In this document: positions 1 to 57,890 of the stretch, one piece after another
Position numbering within the stretch: position 1 is the stretch's first letter
How the letters are laid out: each line of letters starts with the position of its first letter
Origin: Vairimorpha necatrix
Lineage: Eukaryota
Length of the DNA: 64,000 bases
Assembly (NCBI GenBank): GCA_036630325.1
Contig: CP142735.1
Coordinates: 868,001 to 932,000 of the forward strand
Direction: 5' to 3'
The notes under the pieces: model-generated
What the model saw: only the letters and a program-made list of their open reading frames with translations
Told to the model about the DNA's origin: nothing
The model's database searches: none
Made by a program: the position numbers and the translations under genes

Positions 1-86
1 ATAGCTACAAGTTCGTTGTTTTTTGAATATGCTTTGTAAATTGTAGCGTATGTTCCTTCTCCTATTTTCTTTTCTTTTGTGTACAT
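1..86 (-). CDS. Cyclin-dependent kinase, CDK7/Kin28-like; N-terminal part only, runs off the window start
   Basis: Reverse strand reads MYTKEKKIGEGTYATIYKAYSKNNELVA: GEGTY glycine loop and YTKEKK typical of Kin28/CDK7. CCC motif (plus GGG 93-95) upstream of ATG. Not in the ORF track. Confidence 0.8.
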   Translation of the reverse strand, partial: MYTKEKKIGEGTYATIYKAYSKNNELVA

Positions 87-376
87 ATTAAAGGGATAAA
101 GAATGTTATGTTTTAAAAAATTTGCAAAAAAAACATCTTAGAAAAAATAAAAATTAAAATTTTAATGAATTTTTTGTAAATTTCTTTAGATGATTATCTC
201 TACGTAATATGTAAACAAATATCTTAATTTTTATTTAACAAATTGTTCTATATGTAAAAAATTAAATATAGAAAATTTGTTAATATTGTATTAAATTTAA
301 TATTTAATAAATTGTTCTATATTTAAAAATAACATAATTTTAAATTTTTTATTTAAAATTTTTCACTTTTTTTTTA

Positions 377-383
377 CCCCATG
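377..383 (+). promoter_or_regulatory. Example of the microsporidian CCC start-proximal motif (recurs before most genes in the window)
   Basis: CCC lies within about 15 nt upstream of ATG at 381, 2070, 3554, 4271, 6868, 17379, 19289, 23595 and 55267, and on the minus strand at 86, 1884, 6600, 10156, 12135, 19026, 22487 and 26751. Confidence 0.8.
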
Positions 384-860
384 GATGAAATTTTAAATTG
401 GATTTCTTTAATCTTAGGTGACGATTTCTCAAATCTTTCTTTCGCTTCCGCTCTAAAAGACGGCACTGTTTTGTGCCGTCTTTTAAACAAGACTTGTGGT
501 TACAATATAATTTATAAGAAATCTCCTCAGTTGTTTGTACAGAGGGAGAATATTTGTGCATTTATTAATGGTCTAAAGAAGTATGGTATTTTAGAATATG
601 AGCTCTTTCAGACTGTAGATTTATTTGAGGAAAAGAATCTTAAACAAGTTTCTATTTCTTTGTATGCTTTAAGTCGTCAGTTACAAGTGAAGAAAGAGTT
701 CCCTGGGCCTTTTATAGGCCCCAAGTTAGCCGAGAAGCAGAAGATTGAGTTTTCTCAGGCTGTATTAGATAAAGGGAAGTATGGGTTTAATTTGCAGATA
801 GGATATGATCCTTTATATGAGAAGATAACAGATGAAGAATTTAAGAAGTCAACTTTATAA
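381..860 (+). CDS. Calponin-homology domain protein (calponin/transgelin/Scp1-like)
   Basis: LKDGTVLCRLLN, ENICAFI, FQTVDLFE and GPK motifs; CCCC directly before ATG. Confidence 0.9.
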   Translation: MDEILNWISLILGDDFSNLSFASALKDGTVLCRLLNKTCGYNIIYKKSPQLFVQRENICAFINGLKKYGILEYELFQTVDLFEEKNLKQVSISLYALSRQLQVKKEFPGPFIGPKLAEKQKIEFSQAVLDKGKYGFNLQIGYDPLYEKITDEEFKKSTL

Positions 861-974
861 ACTAAATAATAAACTATTTTATTATTTAATAAAATAGTTT
901 ATTATTTAATAATGTAGTATATAATTTAATATATAATATGTAATATATAATTTATATTGTAGTTTATATTCAGT

Positions 975-1271
975 TTATATTAGTTTTAAGGTTATGACTT
1001 CTAAGGTATGGAAAATTGTCTCAAATAAATCTGTGACTTTATATTCCGGACAGTAAATTCTTGTCTTCTTTTTATTATGAAATATCTTACAGAATATTAC
1101 TAGTCTTTTATTTGGTATCTCCAGACCAGGCTTCTTATAAATTTCTATATCTCCCGTATAGTCCAAGAATAAGAATGTCTTAAGGGAGTTCTTTACACAA
1201 ATACCCGCCATCTCGACATTTAAAGCCTTTTCATCTTTAAGATCTTTAACAAGAACTTTATATCTTATCAT
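975..1271 (-). CDS. Small single OB-fold protein (RPA2/Stn1/RMI2-like)
   Basis: VEMAGICV...FLDYTGDIEI...FHTLEVI pattern resembles RPA2-class OB folds; CCC upstream (plus GGG near 1284). Confidence 0.55.
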   Translation of the reverse strand: MIRYKVLVKDLKDEKALNVEMAGICVKNSLKTFLFLDYTGDIEIYKKPGLEIPNKRLVIFCKIFHNKKKTRIYCPEYKVTDLFETIFHTLEVITLKLI

Positions 1272-1350
1272 TGAATAAAAGAAGGGTTATATCTTATACT
1301 GAATTATATCTTATACTAACTTATACTAACTTTATGTCTTATATCTTATA

Positions 1351-1884
1351 CTAATTTATACTGATTGTTGTTGAGTTTATTTCTATTGTATATTTATAAT
1401 TTAGTTCTATTGGACATTTCACTATCTCTAATCTAATAACTCCTTCTTCTTTATACATTTTATATCTAGTATTGACTTGATATTCCCACTCTAGTCCCAG
1501 TTTGTAACTATAAGTCATCTTATAACTCAGAGTACTAGTAGTATTTACTACTAGTACTCTGAGTTTATATTTATAAATCATCTTCTTAAGATACAATACA
1601 AGTCTAGATATCTTATTATGACTAGTATCTACGATACTAGACAAGTTATCTATAACTAGTAACTCGACTTTATATTCTTTACAGAGTTTTATAGAAGAGA
1701 AGATGTCTTCTAGAGACTGGACTAATTTAATAAGAAGATTCCCTTCTGGGCATCTTAGAATGGGGAAATTAGTAGTACAGAGATACATAGTGAAATATTT
1801 CTTACTTTCTTCTATACAGAGAGCAGTTTTCCCAGTATTTGATTCACCACACAATTCAGTAAGCCCGAAGTATTTCAAGCACAT
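1351..1884 (-). CDS. Rad51/RecA-family paralogue (Rad55/Rad57/XRCC3-like)
   Basis: LTELCGESNTGKT Walker A, LLVIDNL Walker B, VLVVN, LGLEW. Start moved to ATG 1884, which follows a C-run. Confidence 0.8.
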   Translation of the reverse strand: MCLKYFGLTELCGESNTGKTALCIEESKKYFTMYLCTTNFPILRCPEGNLLIKLVQSLEDIFSSIKLCKEYKVELLVIDNLSSIVDTSHNKISRLVLYLKKMIYKYKLRVLVVNTTSTLSYKMTYSYKLGLEWEYQVNTRYKMYKEEGVIRLEIVKCPIELNYKYTIEINSTTISIN

Positions 1885-2069
1885 CTCAAAGGGGGGCAGA
1901 GCAAAAAGTAATGTATAATATAAAATATGTATTAAGACTACATTTGTATAATGCAAATATGCATAATATATAATGCATAAAGAAATATTACAATATATTA
2001 CATAATATACATAATATATAATGCATAATATAATACAATATATTATTCATATTATGCACCCCCTAAATC

Positions 2070-2534
2070 ATGTTGGGAAATTTAGAAAGTATTCCTTACT
2101 TGATCATCTCTCTGGGTCTCATCTTCCTCATTTCTCTGACTTCTTATGGCTCATGCTATGGAATGACTCTCGCCGCCACTTCCTCCTCCCTTTATGCGCA
2201 TAAAAAGCAAGTCATGACTTACTCCTACATAGCCACAATCATGTCATCCTCAATCTTCTTCCAGGCCTTTATTCTCGTCATGATCATCTTGTCAAGGATG
2301 GAAGGAGACTACACTATGAATATGTCTCTGGCTCATACACTGGCCTGTCTTATACTGGGCGGGACAGGATACGCAGTGGGGATACTCATGGGGAATATAA
2401 GTAAAGAAGGATTTAAGAAATTATATAAGGAAACAAAATTTAATATAAGCTTTGTACTACTGTATGCAACATCAGAAGTGATATTATTATTCTCATTTAT
2501 GGCGTCACTTATACTAATATACACTGGAATATAA
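2070..2534 (+). CDS. V-type ATPase proteolipid (c-type) subunit, divergent
   Basis: Four hydrophobic helices, YGSCYGM, Glu in the last TM helix (ATSEVIL); CCCC upstream. Confidence 0.75.
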   Translation: MLGNLESIPYLIISLGLIFLISLTSYGSCYGMTLAATSSSLYAHKKQVMTYSYIATIMSSSIFFQAFILVMIILSRMEGDYTMNMSLAHTLACLILGGTGYAVGILMGNISKEGFKKLYKETKFNISFVLLYATSEVILLFSFMASLILIYTGI

Positions 2535-2560
2535 AATAAACTAAAATGGGAGATATTTAT

Positions 2561-2793
2561 TTATTATATTATATTATATTATATTATATTATATTATATT
2601 ATATTATATTATATTATATTATATTATATTATATTATATTATATTATATTATATTATATTATATTATATTATATTATATTATATTATATTATATTATATT
2701 ATATTATATTATATTATATTATATTATATTATATTATATTATATTATATTATATTATATTATATTATATTATATTATATTATATTATATTATA
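2561..2793. repeat. (ATATT)n pentanucleotide microsatellite, ~230 bp
   Basis: Perfect tandem ATATT run seen directly. Confidence 0.97.
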
Positions 2794-2894
2794 TTTATGC
2801 TATTTATGCATTGTATATTAATATGCATAAATAATATAAGCATAAATATTATATTATTAGCATAAACTTACATAAATATTTATATAATATTTAC

Positions 2895-3158
2895 TTAACA
2901 AGTTTTATTGTAGAAATCTGAGGACTGCTCTTCTTCATACTCTACTTTCTTTTTACTCCTCTTATTATTTATAAACTTCGCAAGTAGAACAAACTCCTTA
3001 AGAAAAACAGGCTTCCCGACTAATTTACTCAATCTTAGAAAAGTCTCTTTTAAATCTTCAGTCAAGTTTAATTCATCACAGAGTGTGTAATACAACCTGA
3101 GAATATCCAAATCAGAGTCGACTCTTTCTTGAGTGTAGAAATCTGGAGGAATGAGCAT
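2895..3158 (-). CDS. Hypothetical small protein (~87 aa)
   Basis: Coding-like composition from MLIPPDFY; the upstream ORF extension is low-complexity sequence. Confidence 0.55.
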   Translation of the reverse strand: MLIPPDFYTQERVDSDLDILRLYYTLCDELNLTEDLKETFLRLSKLVGKPVFLKEFVLLAKFINNKRSKKKVEYEEEQSSDFYNKTC

Positions 3159-3553
3159 GTGTGTGAGTTTGTTTGTATTTTGTTTTTTTATAAACAAAAA
3201 AACAAACAAAAACAAAATAAAACTAAAACATAAATATTTTAAAAATATTTGCATAATTATAACATATTATTAATATTATGTATATTATTTTAGTAATATT
3301 ATGTATATTATTTTAGTAATATTATAATTGATGTACTATAATTCATTATGCAAATATCTTATAATAAACTTATATTATATATATTATATATATTATTATT
3401 ATATATATTATTATTATATATATTATATTTCATATAGTATAATTCATATATTACATTATGCAATATTTCTTACTTGATTTTTTATACAACCCCGCTTTCC
3501 ATTTTTTTTTCCTTTTTATATTCAATTTTTTATATTTTTTTTACCCCCTAAAA

Positions 3554-3940
3554 ATGAATATCGAAATGTCAAGAATCTACACTGATTTAATAGAAGAAGT
3601 CCTCACAAAACTGGAAATAGAAGGAGAACCAGAAGGAATAGGCAGAAATATAATCTTCGACATCCAAAAAGGATGGAGGAAAAATATAAGAGAATGGTAT
3701 GAAAATCCAAAAAAAGAAGAAAATAAAGAAAAATCTGTAGACACATCTTCTACAGATTTATATTTGTCATCTGATGAAGAATATGAAATGATGGAAGAAA
3801 CTTCAAATTTCTTAATGTGTATGTATGTGAAAGTATCAAGGACCAAATGTAAATATAAATGTAATTTTAAACAAGGATTTGTTAATTTAGGGAATGTGGA
3901 TTTTGCATTTAGTAATGCGCAGGGTGAATTGGAATGGTAA
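3554..3940 (+). CDS. TOA1: Transcription factor IIA large subunit (alpha/beta), compact
   Basis: N-terminal IY..LIEEV...W helix and C-terminal MCMYVKVSRTKCKYKC...AQGELEW; ATG after CCCCC. Confidence 0.88.
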   Translation: MNIEMSRIYTDLIEEVLTKLEIEGEPEGIGRNIIFDIQKGWRKNIREWYENPKKEENKEKSVDTSSTDLYLSSDEEYEMMEETSNFLMCMYVKVSRTKCKYKCNFKQGFVNLGNVDFAFSNAQGELEW

Positions 3941-4270
3941 ATTAAAATTGGACTTTAGCGCATACAAAAAAATATAATATCTTATAATTATATAATGTGT
4001 TATAATATCTTAAAATGTGTGTTAGTATTATATATGTAAATTTTATTTATGTTTTATGCTGATGTAAATTCATGTTTTTATAATAGTATAAATTTATATT
4101 TATAATTTATGCGCATAAATATAAACCAAAATAACTTATAAAAACTATATAATAATGAATACTATATAATATATGAATACTATATAAAACAATATAATAT
4201 ATGAATACTATATAATATATGAATACTATATAATTTTTATTTCATTAGTGCTGTGTTGTATCCCTTAATA

Positions 4271-5317
4271 ATGGGTATAAAACAACTAAGTGCTGTTTTA
4301 AAAGAAAACTGCAAAAAAGGTATAAAAGAAAAACCAGTCGCATCATACACTTTTAAAAAGATAGCCATCGATATCTCAAACTTCATCTACCAATTTCTTA
4401 TCGCCGTCAGATCTAGTGGTAATCCACTAGGCTACGGTGACATACCAACTTCCCATTTAATAGGCATGTTCTACAGAACTCTAAGAATAGTAGAATCAGG
4501 AATAATTCCAATCTTCATTTTTGATGGTAAACCACCCGAATTAAAAATTTACGAATTAAAAAAACGAAAAGAAAAACGAGAAAAAGCTGATGAAGAATTA
4601 AAAATAGCAGAAGAATTAGAAAACAAAATTGAAATTGAAAAACAAACTAAAAGGAAAATCAAAGTCACTGATGAACATGTAAAAGATTGTAAAAAATTAT
4701 TAGATTTATTAAAAATTCCTTATTTAACTGCACCAAGTGAAGCTGAAGCTTTTTGCGCTTATCTTTGTAAACAGAAAATTGTACACGCTGTAGCTACAGA
4801 AGATATGGACACTTTACCATTTGGAGGATTAAAACTTTTAAGAAATTTTTCGGCTGGTGTAACAAAAAATCAAAAAATTATTGAATATAATTTAGAAGAA
4901 TTATTAAAAGATTTAGATATGAATTTAGATGAATTTATAGATTTGTGCATTTTATTGGGATGTGATTATACGGAATCTTGTAAAGGTATTGGACCTAAAA
5001 AAAGTTTGATATTTATAAAAAAATATAAAAATATTGAAAATATTTTTAAAAATGAAAAAATTGAAAAAAATGAATTATTTAATTTTGAGAAAGCTAGAGA
5101 AATATTTAAAGAGTTGAGTAGTATAGAAGTAGATATTGATGAGAGAGAAATGAATATTAAGTGGGATGAAATAGATATGAAAGAGATAAAAAAGTATTTG
5201 GTAGAAGAAAAAGGATTTGAAGAGAAACGAGTTGAGAATGGGGTGAATATGATGATGAAATGTAGAAATAAAGCGAAGCAATCAAGTCTTGATGCATTTA
5301 TTAAAAAGAAACAATAA
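4271..5317 (+). CDS. FEN1: Flap endonuclease 1
   Basis: MGIKQL start, IAIDIS..IYQFL, FDGKPP, APSEAEA, TEDMD, LGCDY, GIGPK and C-terminal PIP-like QSSLDAF. Confidence 0.96.
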   Translation: MGIKQLSAVLKENCKKGIKEKPVASYTFKKIAIDISNFIYQFLIAVRSSGNPLGYGDIPTSHLIGMFYRTLRIVESGIIPIFIFDGKPPELKIYELKKRKEKREKADEELKIAEELENKIEIEKQTKRKIKVTDEHVKDCKKLLDLLKIPYLTAPSEAEAFCAYLCKQKIVHAVATEDMDTLPFGGLKLLRNFSAGVTKNQKIIEYNLEELLKDLDMNLDEFIDLCILLGCDYTESCKGIGPKKSLIFIKKYKNIENIFKNEKIEKNELFNFEKAREIFKELSSIEVDIDEREMNIKWDEIDMKEIKKYLVEEKGFEEKRVENGVNMMMKCRNKAKQSSLDAFIKKKQ

Positions 5318-5535
5318 ACTTATTTTAATAATATTGTAAATATATAATAAACTAAATTTAATAATGTTGTAAAATAGGTTAAGAGATTTTTACTGTAGAG
5401 ATGATGCTGAAGTGTCTTTACATTGTAATGTGTATAAAAGAAGGCATTTTTTTATAAAAAGATCTAGTTTTTATTTTATAACTAGAGCTGACATTAGATT
5501 TTAATTAATAATATTTTTAGATACATCAGTCTTAT

Positions 5536-6600
5536 TTAAATTATCTTTTTATTTAATAAGTTTTTTAAGTAGTTAGGCTTCCCTGTCATATTTATAAATC
5601 TTCTCACACATGTCTCATTTATCAATATATTCCCTTTCTCATTTATCAGATTATATTCTACTAGTTCGCAATATGCTTCAAATATCTCGTCATCTCTCAA
5701 CTTCTTTAGTTCTTTACAAGTTATTATAAATTTCCTAAATTCTCTTACCACATCATTAAAGAGTACTTTTCTAGTACAAGACATAAGTAAAATGGCCAAA
5801 TGAGGAATATTTAGAATATTTAACATGGAATTTAGAGTGAACGGGGAGATGTCATGTTTTAACCTGTAGAAAATATTGACTAAATTGTTAATGTCTCGAT
5901 TTGACTCGTATTCGCGAGATAAAAGATCTAAATATTCTTGAGAGAGCATTTTCCTTACAAATTCATCATTAGAAATTGGCATTTGATCTTGTAATATTGA
6001 ATTAATTATTGTGTGTTTATCATCTTCTAATATTAGATTAAGTGTGTGTTTATCATCTTCTAATATTGAATTAAGTATGTGTTTACTGTCTTTAATTTTC
6101 TTCTTACTTCGTAATTTCGTATTTGTCTGTACGGCGGCACTCCGTTTTGGTCTCCCTGTCGTTTTTCTTGTTATATTAGTTTTATAAATTAAATATTTAT
6201 AATATGATAAATATTCACTCAGACTTAAACTTCTCAACAAACATATTTGATTAGAAAAGCGACTTCTTACTCGCTTCTCCATATTGTCTATCGCCAATAT
6301 ATTCTGAGTATAAAAAATCACTTTACATTTTTTTATATTACTAAGATCCAAATAGTAATAAAGAAGTGGATTATTAGTATCAAGCTTGATAATAATAAGA
6401 GACTTGTCTTTTATATCTTTTTTGGTCTTGATATCTTCAATATTGTAATTTAAAGACTGGAAATGTGCCTTGAAAATTGAGAGTGCATTTTGTAAAATAA
6501 AAATGTCAGTGGAGATTAGTAGAATATTGGAGTTTTGGTGTAAATATTTTATAGAAGAGATAATGTCTTGATTAAAAATATGTGAAATGAAGGAATCCAT
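5536..6600 (-). CDS. ORC4: Origin recognition complex subunit 4-like, divergent
   Basis: MEKRVRSRFS matches the ORC4 LEKRVKSRFS signature; ATG 6600 follows CCC; no clear Walker A. Confidence 0.65.
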   Translation of the reverse strand: MDSFISHIFNQDIISSIKYLHQNSNILLISTDIFILQNALSIFKAHFQSLNYNIEDIKTKKDIKDKSLIIIKLDTNNPLLYYYLDLSNIKKCKVIFYTQNILAIDNMEKRVRSRFSNQICLLRSLSLSEYLSYYKYLIYKTNITRKTTGRPKRSAAVQTNTKLRSKKKIKDSKHILNSILEDDKHTLNLILEDDKHTIINSILQDQMPISNDEFVRKMLSQEYLDLLSREYESNRDINNLVNIFYRLKHDISPFTLNSMLNILNIPHLAILLMSCTRKVLFNDVVREFRKFIITCKELKKLRDDEIFEAYCELVEYNLINEKGNILINETCVRRFINMTGKPNYLKNLLNKKII

Positions 6601-28166: not shown

Positions 28167-30738
28167 GAAAGGGGCGTTAGTTTTTTTTACAGCTCAACAA
28201 AAATTTAGTGAGGTAATAAATAACATCTTAATTTTTTTTTCTGTTATTTACAATATTTATTATATATAAATTAATGACAAATCTAATCAAAGAAGAGAAA
28301 TTAGGTCATTTAACAGATAATTTATATTTTTTTGTTTTCTGACTTATTTACTCACTTTAAGATGAGATTGAGATGAATTATCGACGCATAAAGGGTTTAA
28401 AGGTCTCAATTTTGCCTTTCAATTACTATAAACAAACATTTGTTCTTTTTCTTTGTATAGTTTAATATTATTTTTATAGATTTTAAATCGTCAGAATTTT
28501 GTGTTTCCTTTTTATGTTTTGGATTAAAAATAAGTTTGAATTTGGTTTACATCATGAAATCATTTTAATAATGATATTAATAATACGTTGTCACTAAATG
28601 CTACAAATGTATTATTTAATTTGTACTTTATAATAGATGTTATGTAATTTTCTTGGGAATTATACATGCATACCTAGATCATTCTTTTTTATTATAAGAT
28701 TTTTAAGTTTTCCTAGCATAAAAAAATTTCAAATTTAAATATTTTTCTTATCTGTGTTAGCAAATATATCGTCAGAAAAGATGTTTTTAGTTTTTATTTC
28801 GATTGTAATTTTTTTTTTCGTTTTAATACCACAAAGCTTCGATAAATAAAAAAAATGTAATGTAAACTGTCAAATGCTTTATGATTACGAATATCATGCG
28901 GGTGAAAATATATAATATTTATAGGGGGATACGACATAAACAATATGCTCTAAAATTTAAATTTTAAGCTTATTATACACCTATTAAGTTAATTTCTAAA
29001 ATAAAAGAAAAAATATCAATTCAATATTTTTTAAAATATAATTATGCCTTACACTTTTTTATGAGTAATATATAGAAAGAACTAATATCTATTATAAATT
29101 GCAAAATACATATTCTTATTCATGTATAATATTGACATTAGACCTGTAATAAAAAATGTCAATATATAGATATACGCGGACATAAAAAAAAACATATTAT
29201 TGGTATATATTAGCTTGTCAATAGATAGGTCAAAAATTATATGTTTCCATGTTAGAATTAGCAATTCATGTAACATAATTATTAAAAATTGGGAATTATT
29301 AAAAATATAATGAAATTAAAGATGTTCGAATATAGCAATTAGGGATTTTTTTTAGATTATGTGTTTATTATTTCTAAATAATCAAACAACAAGTTCGTTT
29401 CCATTGTACCTTCAGGTTATATTCTAGTTTCTTGTGATAATTTATGTATTAGCTTTTGGACGTCATTTTTATTGTCTTGTATCTTTTTATTTTTTACAAA
29501 AAAATACAGAGACAGTGATAAATAATGTTTTATATACATAGTAGGATATTATTAAATACTTTATCACCCATTTTATTGTTATGTTGTATATAATATGAAT
29601 TACAAACTGCTTAAAAGAGGGGAAAGTATTATCTTAACAATGCCGTTAATACTTCCGTAAATAATTGGGAAACCATTTCGTATACCAATAAATCATATTC
29701 TCTACGTTCCAAATCTAACACGCTTTTTATGATATTCTGGAGTAGTTTATAACTACGTTGAACAATTTTTCAACCATTTTCTTATTTTCACTAACAGCTA
29801 ATATTATCATTTGATGATTAAAATTATTTTTTTGACATGTTTCTTTGTTTATTAATATATGAGCATATTGCCTTTTATACTCATCTGTGAAATGAGGTCA
29901 CTTTGCAAATATAAACTTGATTTTTATGTAAAGTATAGCTATAAATTGGCTGGGGAAATCTGAAAGAATCCAATTGAGATCGATTTTATTGATCCTATAG
30001 TGATGACGGCTGTATATTAAATACATACATGATATGTTTTGTACTAAAACTGTTATCTTTTTCGTTTGTTGCAAAATAAATTTTTTTAAATTGGTTTGAA
30101 CTAAATACGTATAGGTAATTGATAATCATAAAATTGAGTATTGTTTTTTATAAATCTTAAAATACTTATTGCGGAAAGAAAAGTCCGGTATTATCAATTG
30201 GTAAGCTGTTTTGTTTATCTAATGTTCAATTTACTTATTATAAACACGACGATTATTTAAATAATTATAATTTAATTAAAAATACCCTAGTTTAGATTTT
30301 GTACTAGACCAGAGCATTCATAAGCAAAATTTAATTAAACTAATTTTAATAACATTAATATATGATAAATAATGCCATTATATCAATTTTGTGTTCCAAA
30401 TCAAAAAATTTACTTGCGATATAAAAAAATAACCTTTGTCTTTATCGGCTAATTTCATTAAAGTTCTCCTATTTATATAATTAAAAATATATTTTTTCGT
30501 TTTAAAATCGAAGATTAAGAGAAGTTTTGCAAACAATAAATTTTAAAAAACAACAAAATCTTATTGCGAATATTTTTTGACCATGAAATATTACATAACT
30601 ATTTCTTTTTAATTGTGTAAAGTTATTGTAAAATAATTTATAAACTTAAATATGTATTATAATTGTTTATTTTAAGATATCTTAGGGGTAATAAAAATAC
30701 AAATTTATAAATATTCAACATCCCTCCTCTTTTATAAG

Positions 30739-31682
30739 CTAATATACAAGTACTTTGAGTTGAGACGCATGTCTTTTAAGCCTTCTTCCTTTTGATAATA
30801 CTATATACGAATTATTTTCTAATCGTTCTATAATCTGTCCTCTATCTTTAAACTTGGGTTGTCCTTTAGCTACAGCAAATTCGTTCTTTATTATCACCTG
30901 ATCGTTTTCATTGAACACTTCTTCGACTTCTTTATTCTCGTTTGCTTTGTTAAAGATAATAATTTCTTCGTATTGTTTTTCTTTTATTTTTGTCTCGTTT
31001 TCTTTTTTACAAGCTTCGTTTGGTGACATTCCTAGTTTCGAGTGGCAGATATTATTGTAAGCCTCTAACATTTTTAATAGTTTTGATTTTAGATTTAGAT
31101 TTCCCTCTTGTTTGTAAATCCCTTCCTGCACAGTTCTATTAAATCTTTCTACACGCCCATTTGATTGATGGTGAAAGGGCGTTGTGTAATGTACTTTTAC
31201 TTTATTCTCTATAGCCCAGTTCTTTACTTTGCTACTTTGGTTTTCTTTTGATGAATCCATTATCAACTCTTTAATTAATATTTGTTTGTTAATTTCGTTT
31301 ATAAAATCTACAATTTTCTGACTATCTCTAGTGGTAATAACTTTTCCAAACCCCTTTCTACTAAAGTAATCAATTCCTGTTATTATATATTGTTTATTTA
31401 TTGGTCCTATAATGTCTATAGCTACCTTTTCTCCTGTATAAAACGATTTAACGAACAAAAAGGCTTTTCCTCTTTTTGGATTATACATTTTACATCTTAT
31501 ACACTTTTTCAACTCTTCTTCAACTAATTTCTCCATATTATCCCAAGTATATTCCCTTTTAAGCTCTTTGGCTACTATTTTTGCTCCACGATGAACAAAT
31601 TTTTCGTATTTATCTTTAATAAGTTTCCTTTTTGTGTCATCATTTAAATCTTGAATTTCATTAACAACTTGGGCATCTTTTG
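30739..31682 (-). CDS. Integrase part of pol (different frame, joined by a shift near 31680)
   Basis: Frame reads KDAQVVNEIQ...VHRG...YTW..M...CIRC, IDIIGP, DYFSR, MDSSKE, SNGRVERFNRT; open to the stop before the PPT. Confidence 0.88.
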
Positions 31683-33950
31683 GTATAAGCGAGATATATA
31701 GTCTACATGTGCCATTTCTGCTCCCTTTCTGTATTTTACTGTGAAATTATACTGACTAAGTCTATCTAGCCATCTCTGTATTCGTTGAGAGCCTATTTCT
31801 CCTTTATTCAGAACTTCTAAGGCTTTATGGTCTGTTATTACTTCAAATTTATTCCCGTACAAGAAATATTTAAAATTCTCCATTGCCCATAATACTGCTA
31901 AGCATTCCTTTTCACTAATACTATAGTTTATCTCAGCAGGTAAAAGTCTTCTTGAAGCATATGAAATTGGATAAATCGTTTCACCTTGTCTCTGTGAGAG
32001 AATTGCGCCAACACCTGAATTACACGCATCTGTTTCTAGTATAAATGGTTTTGCATAGTCTGGTTGATATAATGCTATATTTGATTTTATAATAGTTTTA
32101 AGCTCATTGAAAGCTTTATCTTCCAGTTCTCCCCAACAAAAATTTTTATCTTTTTTGAGTAAATCATACAAGCATCCTGCAACACTTGAGCACATGGGAA
32201 TAAATTCTCTATAAAAATTTATAAAGCCAAGAAATTCTTGTAAAGATTTTATATTTTGGGGCGGTTTAATTTCATCAATACCTTGGCTAGCTTCTAATTT
32301 TGGTTTTATTTTGTTATATTCTATTATGTGTCCTAAAAATTCTACTGATGTCTTTTTGTAGATAGTTTTATCTTCATTTAATCGCAAATCATTATTTTTT
32401 AATCGTTCTGTTATAATCCGAAAATTTTTATCATGAATTTCTTCAGTTGTTCCAAAGACCAAAATATCATCAACATAAATGAAACATCTTTTACCAATAT
32501 CCTCTTGTAAAACATCATCCATAAACCGTTGAAATATAGCCGGCGAATTTTTAAAGCCCATTGGCATTACATTCCATTCGTACAAATGATGTTTATGTCT
32601 AAAAGCTGTCTTGTGCCTGTCTTCTTCTGCTAATTCTATTTGAAAAAATCCATCTTTTAAATCTAACTTTGAAAAATATTTTTGATCTTTTAAATTATGT
32701 AAAATTCTTTCTATACTTGGAAGCGAATATTTATCCAAATCTACTAACTTATTAAGTGCAATCAAATTTGTTGTTACTCGAACCGATCCATCTGGTTTCA
32801 TAACTGGTCTAAGATTGTTTAACCACGTAGATCTTGATTTTTGAATATATTTTTTCATTAACAACTTTTCTATCTCGGCGTCTATGGCTACTTCTAATTT
32901 CTGTGGCAATCCATACACTCTTTCTACGACCTTTTCTCCAGGTTTTGTTTTAATTTGACACACTCTGTTTTTTGGCTTTGCAAAAATTTTGATTAACTCC
33001 TGTTTTCCTAATAAAATTTTAAATTTATCAACCTTTGGTAAAATAAAGAGTTCGGTTTTATATATTTTGTCCATATAATTAAATTCAAGCTCTACTATAT
33101 CTCGTACTTTAAATTCTTCATCTAAACACGTAAAAAAGCTCAATTGCTTTATCCTCCTCGACACCTGTAATTTCAATTCTCTAACTGCACAATAAGAAAT
33201 AAAATTGAAACTAGAACCAGAATCAAAAACCACAGGTACTTTCTTAAAATTAACGTAGACGTAATTGTTTTTATTTTCATAAAATGAAGTGCTTTCTTCT
33301 AATCTCTCTTCATTATCAGATACTACCTCATGTACTTGCTTACTTGAACCAGTATCTCTATTTCTATTCCGAAAATAGCAACTTGTAGAAACGTGTCCTG
33401 GCTTTTTACAAATGAAGCAGGTTAAAGTTTTTCTCGGAGTTTCTTTTATGCTTAAATTTTTGAAGGAGAATGATAAATCGGCCTCCTTCTCCATTTCTTC
33501 AATGGTTTCATAAAATTCATCGTCAGTGTCATATTTACTGGATAAAAATATTTTTATAAGTTTATATCTGGGTTTAATACCGTTTTTTAGAATTTTCCTT
33601 CTATCCTTTTCTTCAATTTTTAAATCTTCGCATAATTTTATCGTTTCCTTTATAAATACAGAAACTGATTCATTATCCCTTTGTTTCTTAGAGCAAAGGT
33701 CTACAATAGAAATTTTTGTACTAAATTTCTCTATTGCTTTGTTTTTCCAATCTTCATAATTATAACTTGCTTTTCTTTTATTAGCAAATTCTTCTAAATG
33801 CCAGTTTAAGATATTTTCATCAAATCTACTTATAAATTCTTCCATTTTATCTTCGTCCTTTTTTATATTCCATTTACTAAGAGCCTCTGCTCTTTTTATT
33901 TCATGTATTATGTTGTTTTTAGTTATTTTTTCGTTCATATTCTCCACCAT
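31644..33950 (-). CDS. Gag-protease-RT-RNase H polyprotein (frameshifted before integrase)
   Basis: CFICKKPGHVSTSC knuckle, VFDSGSS protease, LDLKDGFFQ, MPMGFKNSP, YVDD, ETDAC, EKE, TDH. Confidence 0.93.
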   Translation of the reverse strand: MVENMNEKITKNNIIHEIKRAEALSKWNIKKDEDKMEEFISRFDENILNWHLEEFANKRKASYNYEDWKNKAIEKFSTKISIVDLCSKKQRDNESVSVFIKETIKLCEDLKIEEKDRRKILKNGIKPRYKLIKIFLSSKYDTDDEFYETIEEMEKEADLSFSFKNLSIKETPRKTLTCFICKKPGHVSTSCYFRNRNRDTGSSKQVHEVVSDNEERLEESTSFYENKNNYVYVNFKKVPVVFDSGSSFNFISYCAVRELKLQVSRRIKQLSFFTCLDEEFKVRDIVELEFNYMDKIYKTELFILPKVDKFKILLGKQELIKIFAKPKNRVCQIKTKPGEKVVERVYGLPQKLEVAIDAEIEKLLMKKYIQKSRSTWLNNLRPVMKPDGSVRVTTNLIALNKLVDLDKYSLPSIERILHNLKDQKYFSKLDLKDGFFQIELAEEDRHKTAFRHKHHLYEWNVMPMGFKNSPAIFQRFMDDVLQEDIGKRCFIYVDDILVFGTTEEIHDKNFRIITERLKNNDLRLNEDKTIYKKTSVEFLGHIIEYNKIKPKLEASQGIDEIKPPQNIKSLQEFLGFINFYREFIPMCSSVAGCLYDLLKKDKNFCWGELEDKAFNELKTIIKSNIALYQPDYAKPFILETDACNSGVGAILSQRQGETIYPISYASRRLLPAEINYSISEKECLAVLWAMENFKYFLYGNKFEVITDHKALEVLNKGEIGSQRIQRWLDRLSQYNFTVKYRKGAEMAHVDYISRLYQKMPKLLMKFKI

Positions 33951-35246
33951 GTTTATTTTAAGATATCTTAGGGGTAATAAAAATACAAATTTATAAATAT
34001 TCAACAATAATAAACAATTTTGAAGCTTTTACGACAATTTTATGATAAAAAGACGCAGAAGCAAACATTAATCAACTCAAATGGTTAAAAAATGTACGAT
34101 TTTTGATCAACGAAATTTGAATTTATTTCGTAAATGAAAATTTGGTATAAATCGATATATTTTATGTCATAAAATAAAGAGTTGCCTCTTAGTAGAACTT
34201 GCTGGTTCTATGATTAATAAAACAAAAAATACTAAAAAATCAAAATACTATTAGATTTATGTTTATATTGTTTAATTTTGATAATAGAAAGTTAGTATAA
34301 ACGAATACGAGTTCCAAAACAATATAGAATTAGCATAAAAAAATCATGCGGCCTTGAAAAAGCGTATGACAGTACAATCGAGATAATTAAGTGTGAAAAC
34401 AACAGGAGCTTTTATGGGACGTACCATTTTAGGCGATAATATCGGCTTTACCGGGTCAAGAGATCCACCTCAAAATTCGAATTTTATGACTTTTACAAAC
34501 AAATTTTTATACTAGTAGACGAGATTTACTCCTCAGACAGAAGGTAAAATTTAAAATAAAAACAAAATTAAACATTTTATAATACACTTTATTTTTTAGT
34601 AATCTGCTGCTCGAGAGCAGTCATACTTTACTTACGTTGCCATTGTTTTTACGCAATTTTCGTTAAGCTTATTAAGGTATCCACCACTGAGGAAAGTATG
34701 TAAAATGTTTTTAATGTAATTTTTACTTTTGCTTTCCATTACTCCGTCCCCAATTCGGGTAAAATAATTAAATAAATGTTGGAGGGGAAACAGGACGAAT
34801 TTGGAGGGAAAGATTTTAGAAATATTTTTTATGATATTTAGTATATCATACTTATTATTTCTCTTAGAGTGTAATATTTTTTTTCATAGAGAAAATTTTC
34901 AAATATTTTATATCAGTAGAAGAGATTCAACCATAGAAGAGATCCATGGCCTTTTCTATGGGGTGGATCTCTTAGCCCGGAAAACCAAGGAGCATTTTTT
35001 CGATATATTGCCTTTGAAAACAAAAAGTACTTTCTTATGTTGTATTTATTTATATTATTGGATTTTACTTTTTTCTTGTTCGAAATTTTGCACAAATTTT
35101 TTATTAATATATATATTCACATAACGAGGTTAAAGTATATTGTTTTTTTAAACGTATAATTAAAATCTTTTTTAAAATAAGATACAACCTTTTATCTGAA
35201 AATTTATTTGTTTTAATTGCAATTTCTACTAAAATACAAAAAAATA

Positions 35247-36241
35247 GGCTGGCTAAGTCCATTCTAGCACGCAAAATTCGATATAGGGGGTTTTGTGTTT
35301 TTTTGTCCCTTTTTTTAAAAAATGGAGGAGGGAAAATGTGGATGAAGGAACAAAAATTATCACAATAAATTTAATAATGCATCAAAAACAGAATTAGAAT
35401 TATTTATCTAGAGCAAATACCTAAATAAATAAAGTCTTGCACTATAACTGATCTATTTCTATTAGGTATGGAATTTTAAAGGGAACGCAAATTACCTTCT
35501 ATGGTGTTGGTATGAACTCCCTTATTTAGATCCCTGAAATACAATGAATGATTAGCCATATGAGTTTGGTTAAATATAGTACCCAAATAATTGTAGGCTC
35601 TCCACATATCGCTATATATAATGCTATATCCAATTACATATTTCACCAGAAGATCAGTAAGTGTTTCTTTATCCCTTTTTAATATGTAGCATTATGATTT
35701 TACGTTCTATGGTTCGTTAGACCATGCCAAAACACCAGAAGCCTTTCACTAATTTACCTCTATTGTATTTATTTTTTCCAATTTTTGATTCGTCGATTTC
35801 TACTATTATCCCTTGTCCACCCAGCATGTCAGAGAGATAAATATTTTTCGTAAATGCATATTTCCTTTAGTTTTTTCAATAATGAAGATATTGATTTTTT
35901 CGTACAACTTAAAATTTGACAAATATGCTTCCGAGAATAACCGATAACCCACATGTTAAGTATCTGTAAAAATGTTATATGTTTGAGTTTACAATTATCA
36001 AAGAACGTATCATGCCAAATGTTAATTGAATTTTTACAATCTTTCCAAGTACACTTTAAGATACTACTGTCTTTTCTATCTTTCTTTCCCCATTCCACCA
36101 TGATTTATATCACAAAATTTCTTTTGAAAAATCTTTATCTAATCATTATATATGATTTCTAATCTTCTCTCGTTAAAATTCTCTCCTCCATTTTTTAAAA
36201 AAACCTATAACGAATTTTGCGTGCTAAAGTGGACTTTAGCC
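35247..36241 (-). mobile_element. Merlin (IS1016/ISXO2-like) DNA transposon, degenerate
   Basis: Imperfect TIRs GGCTAA(A)GTCCA.T.TAGCACGCAAAATTCG.TATAGG at both ends. Minus-strand fragments GGQGIIVEIDESK, KYNRG, SDMWRAY, NHS, GVHTNTIEG with stops. Approximate 8-bp TSD (AAAAAATA/ATAAAATA). Confidence 0.88.
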
Positions 36242-36539
36242 ATAAAATAATATCTCGACACGGTTAATATTATAAAAAATTGAATCCCTAATGTGTATAC
36301 ACATGTTGTTTTTTCATAATTCTATGACACTTAAAATTAATTATGTTAATTTAAATTGTAATTTTAACCAATGTGTATATTACAATATTTTTCGTACGAT
36401 AATATATTTATTAAAATATTATAAAAACATTTTTATATATAAAAAATTGTGCAGATTTTTGATTAGATAATACTATTACTATGACGCATTATGTATAATT
36501 CAATAATCATTTATCAAAAAGCAAGTAAAATACATTAAA

Positions 36540-39500
36540 TGTTATAATCAGTAATAATATTAAACCCCAATTATGTTAAGCACTTATATGGGGGTGATAC
36601 CTAAAGAAGAGTTCACAAGAGAGGACTGTGGCCAAGTGGCCAGAAAGATGTTACAGGAGTTAGAGCGTATATTGTATGAATTGGATTTGAGAGATGTGGA
36701 TAGAGAGAAATGGAAGAGTGAGCTGTTCAAATTGGCTTCGATGGATTTAAAAGATTTTATTGTGAGAAATATCAAAAAGGAAGAAAATATTGAAGGAATA
36801 AGGAAGAAGCTATTGTTAAGGATTAAGGAAGTAGAGGAGGAAGAAAAGATATATGAGGAAATGAGAAAAATTATTTCTAGGACTATAAATGAAGAAATTA
36901 GTAGAGAACAACCAAGACAAAAATCGAGAGTACCGAGATGCTTCTATTGTGATAGACAAGGGCATAGGGTGTTTGAATGCAGACTGAAGATTAATAGAGA
37001 TAATTATTATAAAAAGAATAACAAGGATAACAGTTGCAAAATGGAAGTAGGTAGTGAATCAGAGTCAAGTCAGGAGCGAGATTTTAGAAGATCAAAAAGA
37101 GGACTTAGAGTCAAATTTGAGAAAAATCAAAAAGAATATGCCGTTAAAGAGGAGAGTAAGAGAATCAGATTAAATTTAGATAAGAATGCTAAGAGTTTTG
37201 GAGAGGTTTTTAAGTTAGGAAAAGAGGAGATAAAATATTGTAAACTGGAAAAATGTAAAATTAATACTGAAGCGGGTATGAAGGTATTTAAAAAGGGACA
37301 AATGGTTCCGCAGGCGTTGATAAAAGATACAGAGCTACATCTAGAAGATTTATTAAAAAGGAAAGTGATAAGAGAGTCAAATTCAAGTTGGAGGAATCCT
37401 ATAAGGTCAATCAGAAAGCCAAATGGTGAGATAAGACTGGTTAGTAATTTGATGGCATTGAACGATATTGTAGAAAAGGACGAGTATAGATTGTCTAACA
37501 TAAGAGATGTTGTAAGAGCTACACAAGGTGCAAAATATATGACGGGTTTCGACTTAAAAGAGGCCTTCTATAGTATTGAGATAGAGGAGGAGGATAAACA
37601 TAAGACGGCGTTTGATTTTAATGGCAAGGTTTATGAATGGAACTCTATGGTTATGGGATATAAGAATAGCCCGCAGATATTGCAGAGAATTATGGATAGG
37701 ATTTTTAGAGATATGAAAGGCAAAGGAGTAGAGGTGTATATGGACGATATTGTGTTGTACAGCCGAACGATAGGAGAACACGAGCAATTAGTGAAAAGGG
37801 TATTAAATAGACTGAAGGAAAACAATATGAAGCTGAATGCAAATAAAGTTCAGTTTTGTCAACGGGAAGTTAAATTATTGGGAGTCACTTTAAATGGAGA
37901 AGATATAATACCGTCAAGATAAAGAAAAATGAAGCCCTAGAGTTTCCGATACCAACATGCGTGTCAGATGTAAGAAGATTTTTAGGAATGACGGGTTGGT
38001 TCAGAGATTTTATTAAGAATTACGCTGGATTGACAGTTAGGTTGACAGATAGTTTAAAAGGGAAGAATGATAATTGGAAGTGGACGGATGATATGAAAAA
38101 CGAGTTTAATAATTTAAAAGAAGTATTGAAAGGCCTAGGAAAGCTGCAAATAGCAGACTATGATAAAGAATTTTTGTTGAGGACTGACGCTAGTAATGTA
38201 GGCATGGGCGCAGTACTGTTACAGAAAAATAATCAAGGAGAATGGGTGCCAGTACAGTGGGCGTCTAAGAAGTTTACCGTTACGGAAGTTAATTATGGTA
38301 TATCAGAAAAAGAAATGTACGCAGTTTTTTGGGGCGTTAAAAAGTTTGAATATGAATTAAGAGGTAGGAAATTTAGAATAGAAACTGATCATAAAGCGTT
38401 GGGCGAAATAAGAAACAAGCCCGACTTTAAGAATGCTAGAATTAATAGATGAGTCGAGAAGATTCAGGAATTTGATTTCGTGATAGAATATAGAACTCCA
38501 GAAAATATGGTCGTAGCCGATGCGCTAAGTAGGGTATATACAGAAGAAAAAGATGCAAAGAAAAAGAGAAATGAAATACGCCGTGATAGACAAAAAGAAG
38601 GGAAAAGAAATAAGCATGTAAAAATTGTAGAAGGTAAAGAATACTGGGTATTTGATAGTGGTAGAGAAGGCGAGATGCCTTTGGAACAAGACAGAGAGAG
38701 ATTAATAATGGATTGTCATGTCAATTTGAGCCACAGAAGCAGAACAACGGTATATTATGAGTTGAGGAAACAGTATTATTGGCCAGGAATTAAGGATCAG
38801 ATCGAAAAGGTCCTTAAGAATTGCGAGACTTGTCAGATTTTTAATAGAAAAACGAGTGGCGGTACTGATTTAGTGAACACGACAAGATATTTAGAGAAGG
38901 TTGGCTTAGATTTAATAGAATTTAGGGATGAGAAAGCGTTTATTGTTTTGGCAGTTGATTACTTTACAAGGAGATTATGGGGCAGAGTATTGAAGAGCAA
39001 GCACGCATCTGGAATTGCCGAATTTATCAAGGATTTGTGTAAACAGGGTAGAAAACCAGAGGAAATCATTACGGATAATGGTAAAGAGTTTTGCAACGAA
39101 AAAGTTACCGAGCTATGTAGAAATTTGGATATTAGTCATAGAAAGGTCAGCGTTGAGTCGCACAGAAGTAATGGAAGAGTAGAAAGAGTTATTAGAACTG
39201 TAAGAGATAGTATTTTAAAGAGCCAAAAAGAGGAATTCGAGAACAAGGTTTATGAAGCTATTGAGAAATATAATTTAAGTTTTCATGCTGGTATTAGGTG
39301 CACGCCAGTAGAAGCTTTAACCGATAATACAGGAAATGTTAGTATGGAGAATAGTCCAGAGGGAAAGTATGCGCAACAGTTCAAAAGTTGGTTTAGAGAA
39401 AAGTTCAAAAGGAACCAGATAGTTAGGGTTGCCAAGAATGAGAATTTAAAGGGATGTAGTAAGTATAGTAAGGGTCGATTTTTAGACATGGGAAGAGTGA

Positions 39501-39680
39501 TTGAGCTATGTCCAGGGGATTCATATATAGTGAGATTAGAGAATGGAAGGTTGGTGAAAAAAAGGCATTATGATCTTAAGGGTGTAGGGGATTTAAAGTA
39601 TGTTGAAGGAGACTAACCGTCTGGAGGGGGATGTTATAATCAGTAATAATATTAAACCCCAATTATGTTAAGCACTTATA
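36540..39680 (+). mobile_element. Ty3/gypsy LTR retrotransposon with 49-bp LTRs (TG...TA)
   Basis: Identical 49-bp repeats (36540-36588, 39632-39680); TSD TTAAA on both sides; PBS TGGGGGTGATACC from 36589; PPT GGAGGGGGA (39623-39631). Confidence 0.94.
36573..39616 (+). pseudogene. Gag-RT-RNase H-integrase polyprotein with one frameshift (~37917) and one nonsense codon (TGA 38450-38452); no visible protease
   Basis: CFYCDRQGHRVFEC, FDLKEAFY, YMDD, RTDAS, ETDH, H..SH...C..C, DLIE, TDNGKEF, SNGRVER. PSR* continues as IKKNEALEFP in the next frame, and RINR*VEK is at the conserved RW. Confidence 0.9.
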
Positions 39681-39691
39681 TTAAATTAATT

Positions 39692-40534
39692 TTATAAATT
39701 ATTTATTAAATTTTTTATATCCTCTAAATTTCTTAGATCCTCCATTTTTTCAAACATTATATTCATTTCATTTATACTTTCAAAATATATTTTGGTTTCC
39801 TCCGATAGTTGTTTTATTTGCTGTTGCATTTCAGTTATTATATTTTGAACAATAATAATTTTATTTTTATCAAAACATGAACACATGAGAATGTCATTTT
39901 TAATGTTCTGTAAAACTATATTCATTGGTATATCCTTCAAAATTTCGAAAATTTTTTCCGCCATTTTGTTATTGCTGTAAATATAGAATGTCATCCAATC
40001 TGCTTTAGTGATAGGTCGTGGATCAAATTTAATAAATGTAGTTAATACGTCAAATACAATTTCTAAATCTTCTTTATAATTGTTTAATTCATATTCAGTT
40101 AATTTCAAGTTTAACATATTTGTTTGTAATTTCTGATATGTATTTGTAAGTATGAAAATTATTTTTTCGTTCCATTTTCTTACTATATCACCAAGATCGC
40201 CATTTTGATATGTATGACACAAACTTTTTTCTAGACATAATTCATTGGTTGGGTAAAAAAATCCCCATCCCGCATTTGTATTTTCCATTATTGTAAAAAG
40301 CTTATCCTTCAAGTATTCAACAATATCCCCTTCAAAAGTGCAGTAATAGTCTTCAAATGCTTTATTAAAATAATCCAAGGGCAATGTGGTGCATTGTATT
40401 AATAGTGATTCATTTGGATATTTGGAATTTAAATATGGTAGAGGCATGGTTGAGTTGATAGCTTGTTCATTGGACTCTGCACAGACATTTTAATCTTCTT
40501 TTTGATTTAGTACAAACAAAAAATAAAAAAACAT
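39692..40534 (-). pseudogene. Lineage-specific gene with hydrophobic N-terminus and a premature TAA at codon 15
   Basis: CCCC-preceded ATG at 40534 gives MFFYFLFVLNQKED*, then continues in frame into the 251-aa ORF. Paralogue remnant at ~28 kb. Confidence 0.65.
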
Positions 40535-57088: not shown

Positions 57089-57890
57089 AGGTGCCCTTGG
57101 CCGAGTGGTCGAAGGCATGTTCTCATTGACCAATGGGCTGGGTTCGAGTCCCAGGGGCACCAAATTGTTTCTACTTTCTATGATGCAGTTGGAACAACTC
57201 AGATGATGAAAATGTCCACGGTAATCATTAAGTTGATTCAATGAAACTTGTGTGTGTCCAGCCACAAGGGGATTAGCATCTAGTGTAGAAACGCACCTCA
57301 AGGCCAAAAAGCAGTATCGCCCTCTGGTGACTTAATGATACATAAAAGTATCTAATGGGTACGGCCTAGTTGGAGCCCATGGCTGGTGCACTCTAGAGTG
57401 GGATCCTAGAGCTAACTAAGAGACTAGACGAAGTAGGGCAATAGAAGGTCTCGTGGACCCTATCCTACATGATTCTGTAACACGGTGGCCGAAACTAGTG
57501 GGAGACTGGTGGTCAACGCAGTCCAATAAAAATGCCGGGCTGGGGATGTGGTCGTGTAAGGAGCCGTGTGTGCGATACAGATGATTGTAGGGACCTTTGA
57601 GTCAGTACGATGATGTCTCTCCTCGGGTTATAGATAACCATGCCCGTTAAGTATATCCGCTGTGAGGTCACTCTGGACGCGATTTGAGGTATAAATGGAA
57701 AGTGTTCTCCTGGAGCCAAAGTCCAATGGATACGGCGGAGCTTGCTGCACCGGCAAGTTATACGGAGGGAGTTTTAGTGAGTAAGAATCTCACAGTACCA
57801 GTTGGAAAAGGATCACACCCAAATCCCTCTGGTCCCTATGTAAGGTTTCTCCCTACCTCTTACTTGCAAAGAAAAAAAAAAAAAAAAAAA
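57089..57890 (+). mobile_element. tRNA-derived SINE-like retroposon (~800 bp)
   Basis: Head with A box TGGCCGAGTGG and B box GGTTCGAGTCC; acceptor GGTGCCC/GGGCACC; T-stem CTGGG/CCCAG; poly(A) tail; 14-bp TSD AAATAACAATTGCG (57075-57088, 57891-57904); GC-rich body. Confidence 0.92.

Follow-up and report, generated by a model that had tools for sequence, protein, structure and literature searches.

The window of Vairimorpha necatrix DNA analysed here (64,000 nucleotides, positions 868,001 to 932,000 of contig CP142735.1, assembly GCA_036630325.1, G+C 23-34%) contains, at 36540-39680, a 3,141-bp long terminal repeat (LTR) retrotransposon of the Ty3/gypsy type with LTRs of only 49 bp. We are fairly sure that it represents one integrated copy of a protease-less microsporidian Ty3/gypsy lineage, 3.1 kb in length and with a single frame of about 1,000 codons; the mechanism by which it would work is something that we infer. 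Its direct terminal repeats are flanked by a short duplication, the polypurine tract (PPT, GGAGGGGGA, 39623-39631) abuts the 3' LTR, and reverse transcriptase (RT), RNase H and integrase follow one another along 37410-39142 in the order of Ty3/gypsy elements. Two of the usual marks of this group are missing, as both LTRs run TG...TA rather than TG...CA, and no aspartic protease was found between Gag and RT. The features are collected in Table 1; the positions that a sequence-only reading had given for the LTRs, the TTAAA duplication, the PPT, ATTAAA, CCCC and ATG were all correct on recheck.

Within the window, the 49-nt LTR has two matches at up to 3 mismatches, both of them exact, with 0 expected from 100 shuffles, and the identical repeats with a TA 3' dinucleotide that had been read from the letters are thus borne out in both copies. 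For the view that the two repeats agree by chance, or were produced by the assembly around a fossil pol gene, we found no point in favour, and we consider it negligible: besides the chance expectation, the 5' repeat fills the space from the duplication to TGG and the 3' repeat that from the PPT to the duplication without a spare base, and independent sequencing runs contain the same junction of the LTR with the primer-binding site (PBS) position.

The boundaries themselves can be drawn in more than one way. The exact direct repeat is 51 nt long (36539-36589 and 39631-39681), because the PPT and the flank contribute the same base, A, and TGG and the duplication likewise share a T, so that four parses are possible: 49 bp with TTAAA, A+TGTT...TATA (50 bp) with TTAA, TGTT...TATAT (50 bp) with TAAA, or 51 bp with TAA, the target-site duplication (TSD) being 3-5 bp according to the parse. 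The flanks read ...CATTAAA/TGTT on the left and ...TATA/TTAAATT on the right (here and below a slash marks the LTR border). We prefer 49 bp with TTAAA, and regard it as quite probable, by analogy with a sister element of the same window, hereafter the 57-bp element, in which the repeat is exactly 57 bp, starts with TGTT, is preceded by T (not A) and is enclosed by a clean 5-bp duplication, ATTAT. A chance 5-bp match in such A/T-rich DNA would have a probability of about 0.3% (our own arithmetic from the G+C content).

An LTR of 50 or 51 bp, including the 50-bp form with TAAA that the sequence-only reading had named as an alternative, is possible given the 51-nt repeat, but in our judgement improbable. 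Logan contigs of four public runs (X1-X4) were compared with positions 36240-39980, and at the outer ends beyond the 5' LTR the contigs of X1 and X2 point in both directions: in one X2 contig TGTT is immediately preceded by several T instead of A, while both 60-nt X1 contigs start at 36539 with A, a hint that A often precedes the LTR, as a 50-bp parse would have it. The consensus of retro L, a Ty3/gypsy family of Anncaliia algerae, is moreover listed with an LTR of 50 bp and begins with A+TGTT in the supplement of Parisot et al. 2014 (PMC4202319). On the other side, the PPT accounts for the A as its final base, and TGG for the T as its initial one. Weighing against our own preference, it must be said that 49 bp with a 5-bp TSD draws on the window copy, on the analogy with the sister element and on the one X2 contig, and that identical LTRs of 49 bp have no dating power.

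As for the TA end, TATA/TGG is kept letter for letter in two of the three X1 contigs that cross the junction of the 5' LTR and the PBS position; the third has one difference, of unlocated position. Since at least two of the three keep these letters, the TA end is not private to the window copy. The examination of family copies that had been proposed for fixing the termini thus bears on the TA end, and no second insertion's duplication was recovered from it.

The coding region of the window copy is distributed over three open pieces on one strand: 36564-37922, a 452-codon open frame with the CCHC knuckle and RVT_1 in which the ATG at 36573 is in frame; 37874-38452, with RNase H; and 38453-39616, with Integrase_H2C2 and rve. 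From the ATG at 36573 to the stop codon TAA at 39614-39616, 15 nt 5' of the 3' LTR, 3,044 of the 3,141 bp (97%) are coding. One frameshift (near 37916) and one in-frame TGA (38450) make this copy dead. An alternative code in which TGA at 38450 would be read as tryptophan was rejected, because other copies read TGG there and the element uses TGG for tryptophan elsewhere; the TGA is a mutated TGG.

Table 1. Features of the 49-bp-LTR element and its flanks (positions in the window)
Feature	Positions	Strand	Remarks
TSD TTAAA, 5' copy	36535..36539	+	matches 39681-39685; the 57-bp element also has a 5-bp TSD (ATTAT)
5' LTR, 49 bp, TGTT...TATA	36540..36588	+	same as 39632-39680
ATTAAA hexamer	36559..36564	+	directly 5' of CCCC; ends 24 nt before the LTR end
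CCCC, host-type CCC start motif	36565..36568	+	4 nt 5' of ATG, 20 nt before the LTR end
First in-frame ATG, inside LTR	36573..36575	+	M-x(4-6)-M-[GA] start in 4/8 fetched relatives
Second in-frame ATG	36588..36590	+	last LTR base + TG of TGG; A/TGG also in the 57-bp element and retro L
PBS position TGGGGGTGATACC	36589..36601	+	directly 3' of the 5' LTR; translated as part of Gag
Gag-like helical region	36624..36908	+	four helices, residues 18-112 of the frame from 36573
CCHC zinc knuckle	36936..36983	+	zf-CCHC E=0.014, below the Pfam cut-off
Reverse transcriptase	37410..37892	+	RVT_1 E=2.6e-36
Frameshift site	37916..37917	+	frame changes; one base fewer than in other copies
RNase H	38081..38449	+	RT_RNaseH E=2.9e-29
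In-frame TGA	38450..38452	+	W in relatives (RINRW)
Integrase zinc-binding domain	38687..38848	+	Integrase_H2C2 E=1e-14
Integrase catalytic core	38906..39142	+	rve E=1.7e-10
14-mer GAGACTAACCGTCT	39609..39622	+	adjoins the PPT; contains stop TAA 39614-39616; once in the window
PPT GGAGGGGGA	39623..39631	+	abuts the 3' LTR
3' LTR, 49 bp	39632..39680	+	0 mismatches against the 5' LTR
TSD TTAAA, 3' copy	39681..39685	+	matches 36535-36539

Family copies in the public runs differ from the window copy at both of these lesions. In X1 the depth over the element is about 35-37 compared with 0-2.3 in the flanks, and in X2 it is 94-5,983, far above the flanks; X3 and X4 yielded no more than some short fragments. 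One extra base behind 37916 is carried by 37 of 37 depth units in X1 and by 781.7 of 796.2 in X2, and position 38452 reads G instead of A (34.5/34.5 in X1, 641.7/641.7 in X2), therefore both lesions are absent from the copies assembled there. The two long X1 contigs (1,801 and 1,322 nt) show 11 substitutions and 2 indels against the window over about 3.1 kb. Other copies have C at 36595 (X1 108.9/108.9 depth, X2 906/1,305), giving Met-Gly-Ala as in the relatives, and in part of the copies the PPT has one more G. Outside the window, the family is thus multi-copy and live-looking, free of the two lesions. Depth in X2 was also uneven over 36490-39740, with values of about 3,000-6,000 in the LTRs and the gag part, 94 in a portion of the RT and about 520 in the integrase, and some X2 contigs terminate in stretches of T or C. 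The unevenness may reflect truncated derivatives or artefacts of the library.

Among named organisms, those that supply the closest integrase relatives are Nosema granulosis, Nosema pernyi, Vairimorpha necatrix and Trachipleistophora hominis; the best match has 74% identity. Many relatives are polyproteins of about 1,000 aa on contigs of 3.0-3.3 kb, e.g., 1,014 aa on a 3,145-bp contig with fewer than 100 non-coding bases, lengths which are consistent with tiny LTRs without being a proof of them. Among the starts of eight fetched relatives, four have the form M-x(4-6)-M-[GA], three begin with MG or MA and one is different, which fits, at the level of sequence, a start codon across A/TGG, whether or not the LTR holds a second ATG.

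For a quick maximum-likelihood tree, 36 rows were taken: the 49-bp and 57-bp elements (both read with X at the breaks), a contig called L049 from another organism, the 23 closest long homologues (P0044-P0066) and 10 of 32 other protein hits, leaving out the remaining 22. In it, the 49-bp element falls into a clade of 25 rows with an SH-like approximate likelihood-ratio (SH-aLRT) support of 100, next to P0044 (71% identity over 997 columns), and the clade includes L049 and proteins of Enteropsectra breve, Nosema granulosis and Vairimorpha necatrix. By this grouping and by its single frame of about 1,000 codons, the element belongs to the protease-less microsporidian lineage of about 3.1 kb and of the retro L type. 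On a long branch outside the clade stands the 57-bp element, and its placement is unsure; its position there means that short LTRs occur in at least two lineages. An RT phylogeny had been suggested beforehand as the way to see whether short-LTR elements are monophyletic, and in this protein tree they are spread over at least two lineages. The expectation that ultra-short LTRs are not a one-off was upheld, with a 38-bp LTR in L049 from the same clade, 49/50 bp in retro L and the 57-bp element outside the clade.

L049 is a 3,024-bp contaminant contig in a metagenome-assembled genome (MAG) labelled Clostridium, and has a 911-codon open frame with 47% identity over the integrase, followed by GGAGGAGGGGA and a 38-bp LTR, TGTTGGG...CCCC...ACTAACA (3' LTR only). 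In the collection of prokaryote genomes, two contigs of this one MAG (L048 and L049) were found. The MAG (G001, Clostridium sp.) carries them as contigs C138 and C340, both of microsporidian type, together with about 18 further integrase matches, some of them in long retroelement frames, and is therefore contaminated with eukaryotic DNA. Searches of the same MAG with the element DNA and with the L049 LTR gave no further copies, and no family copies were found in viral contigs. A scan of metagenomes gave 47 loci, one of which was close (L001, 58%, 1,254 bp, no termini).

The 5' part of the frame is Gag-like. In an AlphaFold2 model based on 18 aligned sequences, the block-mean predicted local distance difference test (pLDDT) score exceeds 90 over residues 21-110, the zinc knuckle follows the helices, and its residues C123, C126, H131 and C136 are invariant in 18 of the 18 sequences. 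For the helices themselves there was no clear fold match, the best E in Foldseek being 1.1 and the best Z in VIA-align 6.0, the latter among generic helical bundles; the Arc C-lobe (TMt 0.50) and the MOAP1 CA-like domain (Z 5.3) appeared only among tied weak matches.

With a threshold of E<=1, neither the first 276 residues nor the open frame of L049 nor the intact relative P0044 (1,014 aa) showed a protease family, while the 57-bp element, as a positive control, gave RVP_2 at 22.8 bits. Likewise, the records of the 23 closest long homologues list no protease family; more distant homologues from Nematocida do carry one. It could be supposed that the family is non-autonomous and depends on protease-bearing elements such as the 57-bp family, since the protease is absent here and present in its neighbour. 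We find this rather unlikely, as a protease-less clade of 25 rows with open frames of about 1,000 codons in several named genera speaks for long-term success.

The sister element occupies 30664-34006 on the minus strand (3,343 bp, TG...CA, TSD ATTAT, PPT AGAGGAGGGA, RVP_2) and is broken too: the frame that opens with the ATG at 33950 ends at 31647, with the integrase carried on in a different frame. Both elements are microsporidian Ty3/gypsy elements with an ultra-short TGTT LTR, a CCCC (21 nt from the LTR end in the 57-bp element), an ATG at the A/TGG junction, a PPT ending in GGA and a 5-bp TSD. Unlike the 49-bp element, the 57-bp element has a protease (RVP_2) and the canonical CA end, and the proteins of the two share 38-40% identity over RT and RNase H and 30% over the integrase. 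The sequence-only reading had presented the 49-bp element as a second, unrelated gypsy family with an LTR unlike the 57-bp one in sequence. It is indeed a separate gypsy-type family in a different lineage of the tree, but "unrelated" goes too far in view of the common LTR layout and the 30-40% protein identity, and the claim of unlike LTR sequences does not hold, because the aligned LTRs share the TGTT start, an ATTA-CCCC core and the A/TGG end.

The core of the 49-bp LTR reads ATTAAA-CCCC-AATT-ATG, the classical form of a host start, and this composite of hexamer, CCC and ATG occurs in the window only in the two 49-bp LTRs. CCC lies at most 15 nt upstream of the first ATG in 15 of the 28 window open reading frames (ORFs) of at least 150 codons, compared with 111 of all 2,276 ATGs (4.9%), and in 14 of 23 when the five retroelement-derived ORFs are left out. 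Host ORFs often start 0-10 nt after a T-rich stretch and ACCC(C), e.g., at 377, 3544, 6861, 19285, 22492(-) and 26754(-), a context that helps start-codon choice in this genome. According to Peyretaillade et al. (PMC2803860), a CCC-like motif stands just upstream of microsporidian start codons, Encephalitozoon cuniculi has 5' untranslated regions of <7 nt, and Nosema ceranae offers examples such as ...ACCCCACAA 5' of ATG. The host-like CCC start context of the LTR is thus well supported by sequence comparison, and a transcription start site (TSS) after CCCC, which would fit microsporidian start signals, is plausible. Beyond the CCC(C) run, the LTR extends for a further 20 nt in both the 49-bp element and L049, for 21 nt in the 57-bp element and for 19 nt in retro L; TGTT opens all four LTRs, and A/TGG is present in all three with a readable 5' LTR junction (the 49-bp element, the 57-bp element and retro L).

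The ATTAAA hexamer may act as a poly(A)-type signal, as an A/T-rich element of the promoter, or in both ways. The sequence-only reading took it for a poly(A) signal that, standing upstream of the TSS, would be read only in the 3' LTR. In favour of this, the poly(A) spacing fits in the 49-bp family, where the hexamer ends 24 nt before the LTR end, a hexamer directly before CCC is also found in retro L, and AUUAAA, a frequent variant of the poly(A) signal, was the signal in 25% of the E. cuniculi genes examined, as reported in PMC2803860. The hexamer could instead be part of an A/T-rich promoter before CCC, with the RNA ending in the downstream flank, a reading to which we give slightly less than an even chance. 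For it speak an A/T-rich stretch directly before CCC in host genes, both here and in PMC2803860, and the loose use of poly(A) signals with transcription overrun described there for microsporidia. In the 57-bp LTR and in L049, moreover, AATAAA stands after CCCC, 2-10 nt from the LTR end, so that cleavage about 20 nt further on would fall in the flank, outside the LTR. A[AT]TAAA also occurs in 20% of all 49-nt windows of this DNA, which weakens any special role of the hexamer. A poly(A) signal read only in the 3' LTR is therefore a weak suggestion, possible for the 49-bp family but neither needed nor general.

The nearest published counterpart of the element is retro L. Table S1 of Parisot et al. 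2014 (PMC4202319) lists for the LTR families of A. algerae mostly LTRs of 105-272 bp, together with some short ones, namely retro S (45 bp), CK (73 bp), BU (90 bp) and retro L, whose consensus has a total of 3,127 bp, compared with our 3,141 bp, an LTR of 50 bp (A + 49) and an ORF at 32-3049. The ORF thus starts inside the LTR, at consensus base 32. In File S1 of that paper, the consensus starts A+TGTTAT...ATTAAATAAATACCCATG...TTAACA/TGGCG and ends ...GAGACTAACCGTCT-TAGGAGNNGGA/TGTTAT..., from which the likeness can be read: the TGTTAT start, ATTAAA or AATAAA directly before CCC, then ATG, the A/TGG end, and an identical 14-mer GAGACTAACCGTCT before the PPT. There is also no D[ST]G protease motif between CCHC and RT in that consensus, and the RT stretches are closely similar by eye, the whole likeness having been read by eye, not from an alignment score or a tree. 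Unlike the 49-bp element with its TA, retro L ends in CA, its host genus is different, and its PBS position reads TGGCGTC... where the present family has TGGGGG[T/C]G.... The layout common to the 49-bp element, L049 and retro L is an LTR of about 40-50 bp starting with TGTT, CCC, an ATG in or at the end of the LTR, and GAGACTAMCCGTCT before the PPT. In the main text of Parisot et al., as far as available, neither LTR length nor protease is discussed, "protease" occurring 0 times (PMC4202319), and the available part of a 2026 genome paper (PMC13174016) cites that work only for the single-polyprotein form. The design is already in print, though undiscussed; only for two points, the TA end and the conserved 14-mer, did we find no description.

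The 14-mer GAGACTAACCGTCT is identical in retro L and matches L049 (2699-2712) at 13 of 14 positions, with arms AGAC and GTCT around a 5-nt loop. The stop codon falls within it here, whereas in L049 it is part of the coding sequence and in retro L the frame has ended before it; its preservation next to the PPT of three elements from different hosts, in spite of this differing coding state, suggests a cis-acting element.

Taken together, these features allow a mechanism to be proposed. Each LTR would be a complete miniature control region, with the first ~25 bases as an A/T-rich U3 and with the CCCC motif setting the transcription start a few bases downstream. The start codon would be either the ATG that lies 4 nt beyond CCCC or the one completed where the last LTR base meets TGG, and with a start codon at or before A/TGG the PBS position would be translated. 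R and U5 together would measure at most about 20 nt, leaving a minus-strand strong-stop DNA of only about 20-25 nt. ATTAAA may direct the formation of the RNA 3' end within the 3' LTR, or the RNA may end farther out, in the flank; strand transfer would be possible in both cases. The integrase would have to accept a TA 3' end, and the polyprotein may work unprocessed or be cut by a protease from elsewhere.

Two points tell against this scheme: the split into U3, R and U5, the TSS and the poly(A) site are predictions from the letters of the DNA, and the only tRNA gene of the window, for tRNA-Met, agrees with the PBS position at 8 of 12 positions (by eye). Among the tRNA genes of the window (this one tRNA-Met), none matching the PBS position was found. 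The gene lies at 57090-57162 and is elongator-like to judge by its GGTTCGA loop (by eye). Self-priming in the manner of Tf1, with CCCCA on TGGGG, was considered and rejected, since the fold was no better than shuffles (z -0.20 and -0.70; 57-bp element +0.83).

We would go one step further only tentatively, and with rather more doubt than conviction: elements of this kind may be the smallest working LTR retrotransposons known, compressing U3-R-U5 into 38-49 bp by means of the host CCC promoter, with R and U5 of at most about 20 nt, a Gag start across the border of LTR and PBS, no protease, in the 49-bp family also an integrase that has given up the CA 3' end, and the 14-mer (kept from Anncaliia to here, coding or not) as a further cis-acting signal, one that would serve priming or strand transfer.

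In classical Ty3/gypsy elements such as the yeast elements Ty3 and Tf1, the LTRs measure a few hundred bp and have TG...CA ends, a protease is encoded, and the PBS lies in a leader that is not translated. The 49-bp element resembles them in the order of RT, RNase H and integrase, in the 5-bp TSD and in a PPT and PBS that abut the LTRs. TG...TA ends are rare but known from plants: TGTA is among the seven non-canonical types of LTR ends there, whose elements tend to have shorter LTRs, as reported in the LTR_retriever preprint (doi 10.1101/137141); unlike the 49-bp element, they are mostly Copia (89%), with LTRs averaging 272 bp. A literature search found no statement of a general lower limit for LTR length.

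On the other side of the 3' LTR, a 265-codon ORF without a Pfam match is located on the minus strand (39692-40489), and since its end is 11 nt from the LTR, the insertion sits just beyond the stop codon of a convergent ORF.

The element illustrates that an LTR retrotransposon can make do with very little sequence, each LTR being shorter than a typical core promoter. The window copy adds detail to a retro L-type design already present in a published supplement and is not a new kind. The usual finders miss such elements, as LTRharvest with a minimum LTR of 100 bp was used in 180 papers, therefore the repeat content of microsporidia is probably under-counted. Once its RNA ends are mapped, the family would offer a natural test of the minimum length of R for strand transfer and of the need of the integrase for a CA end.

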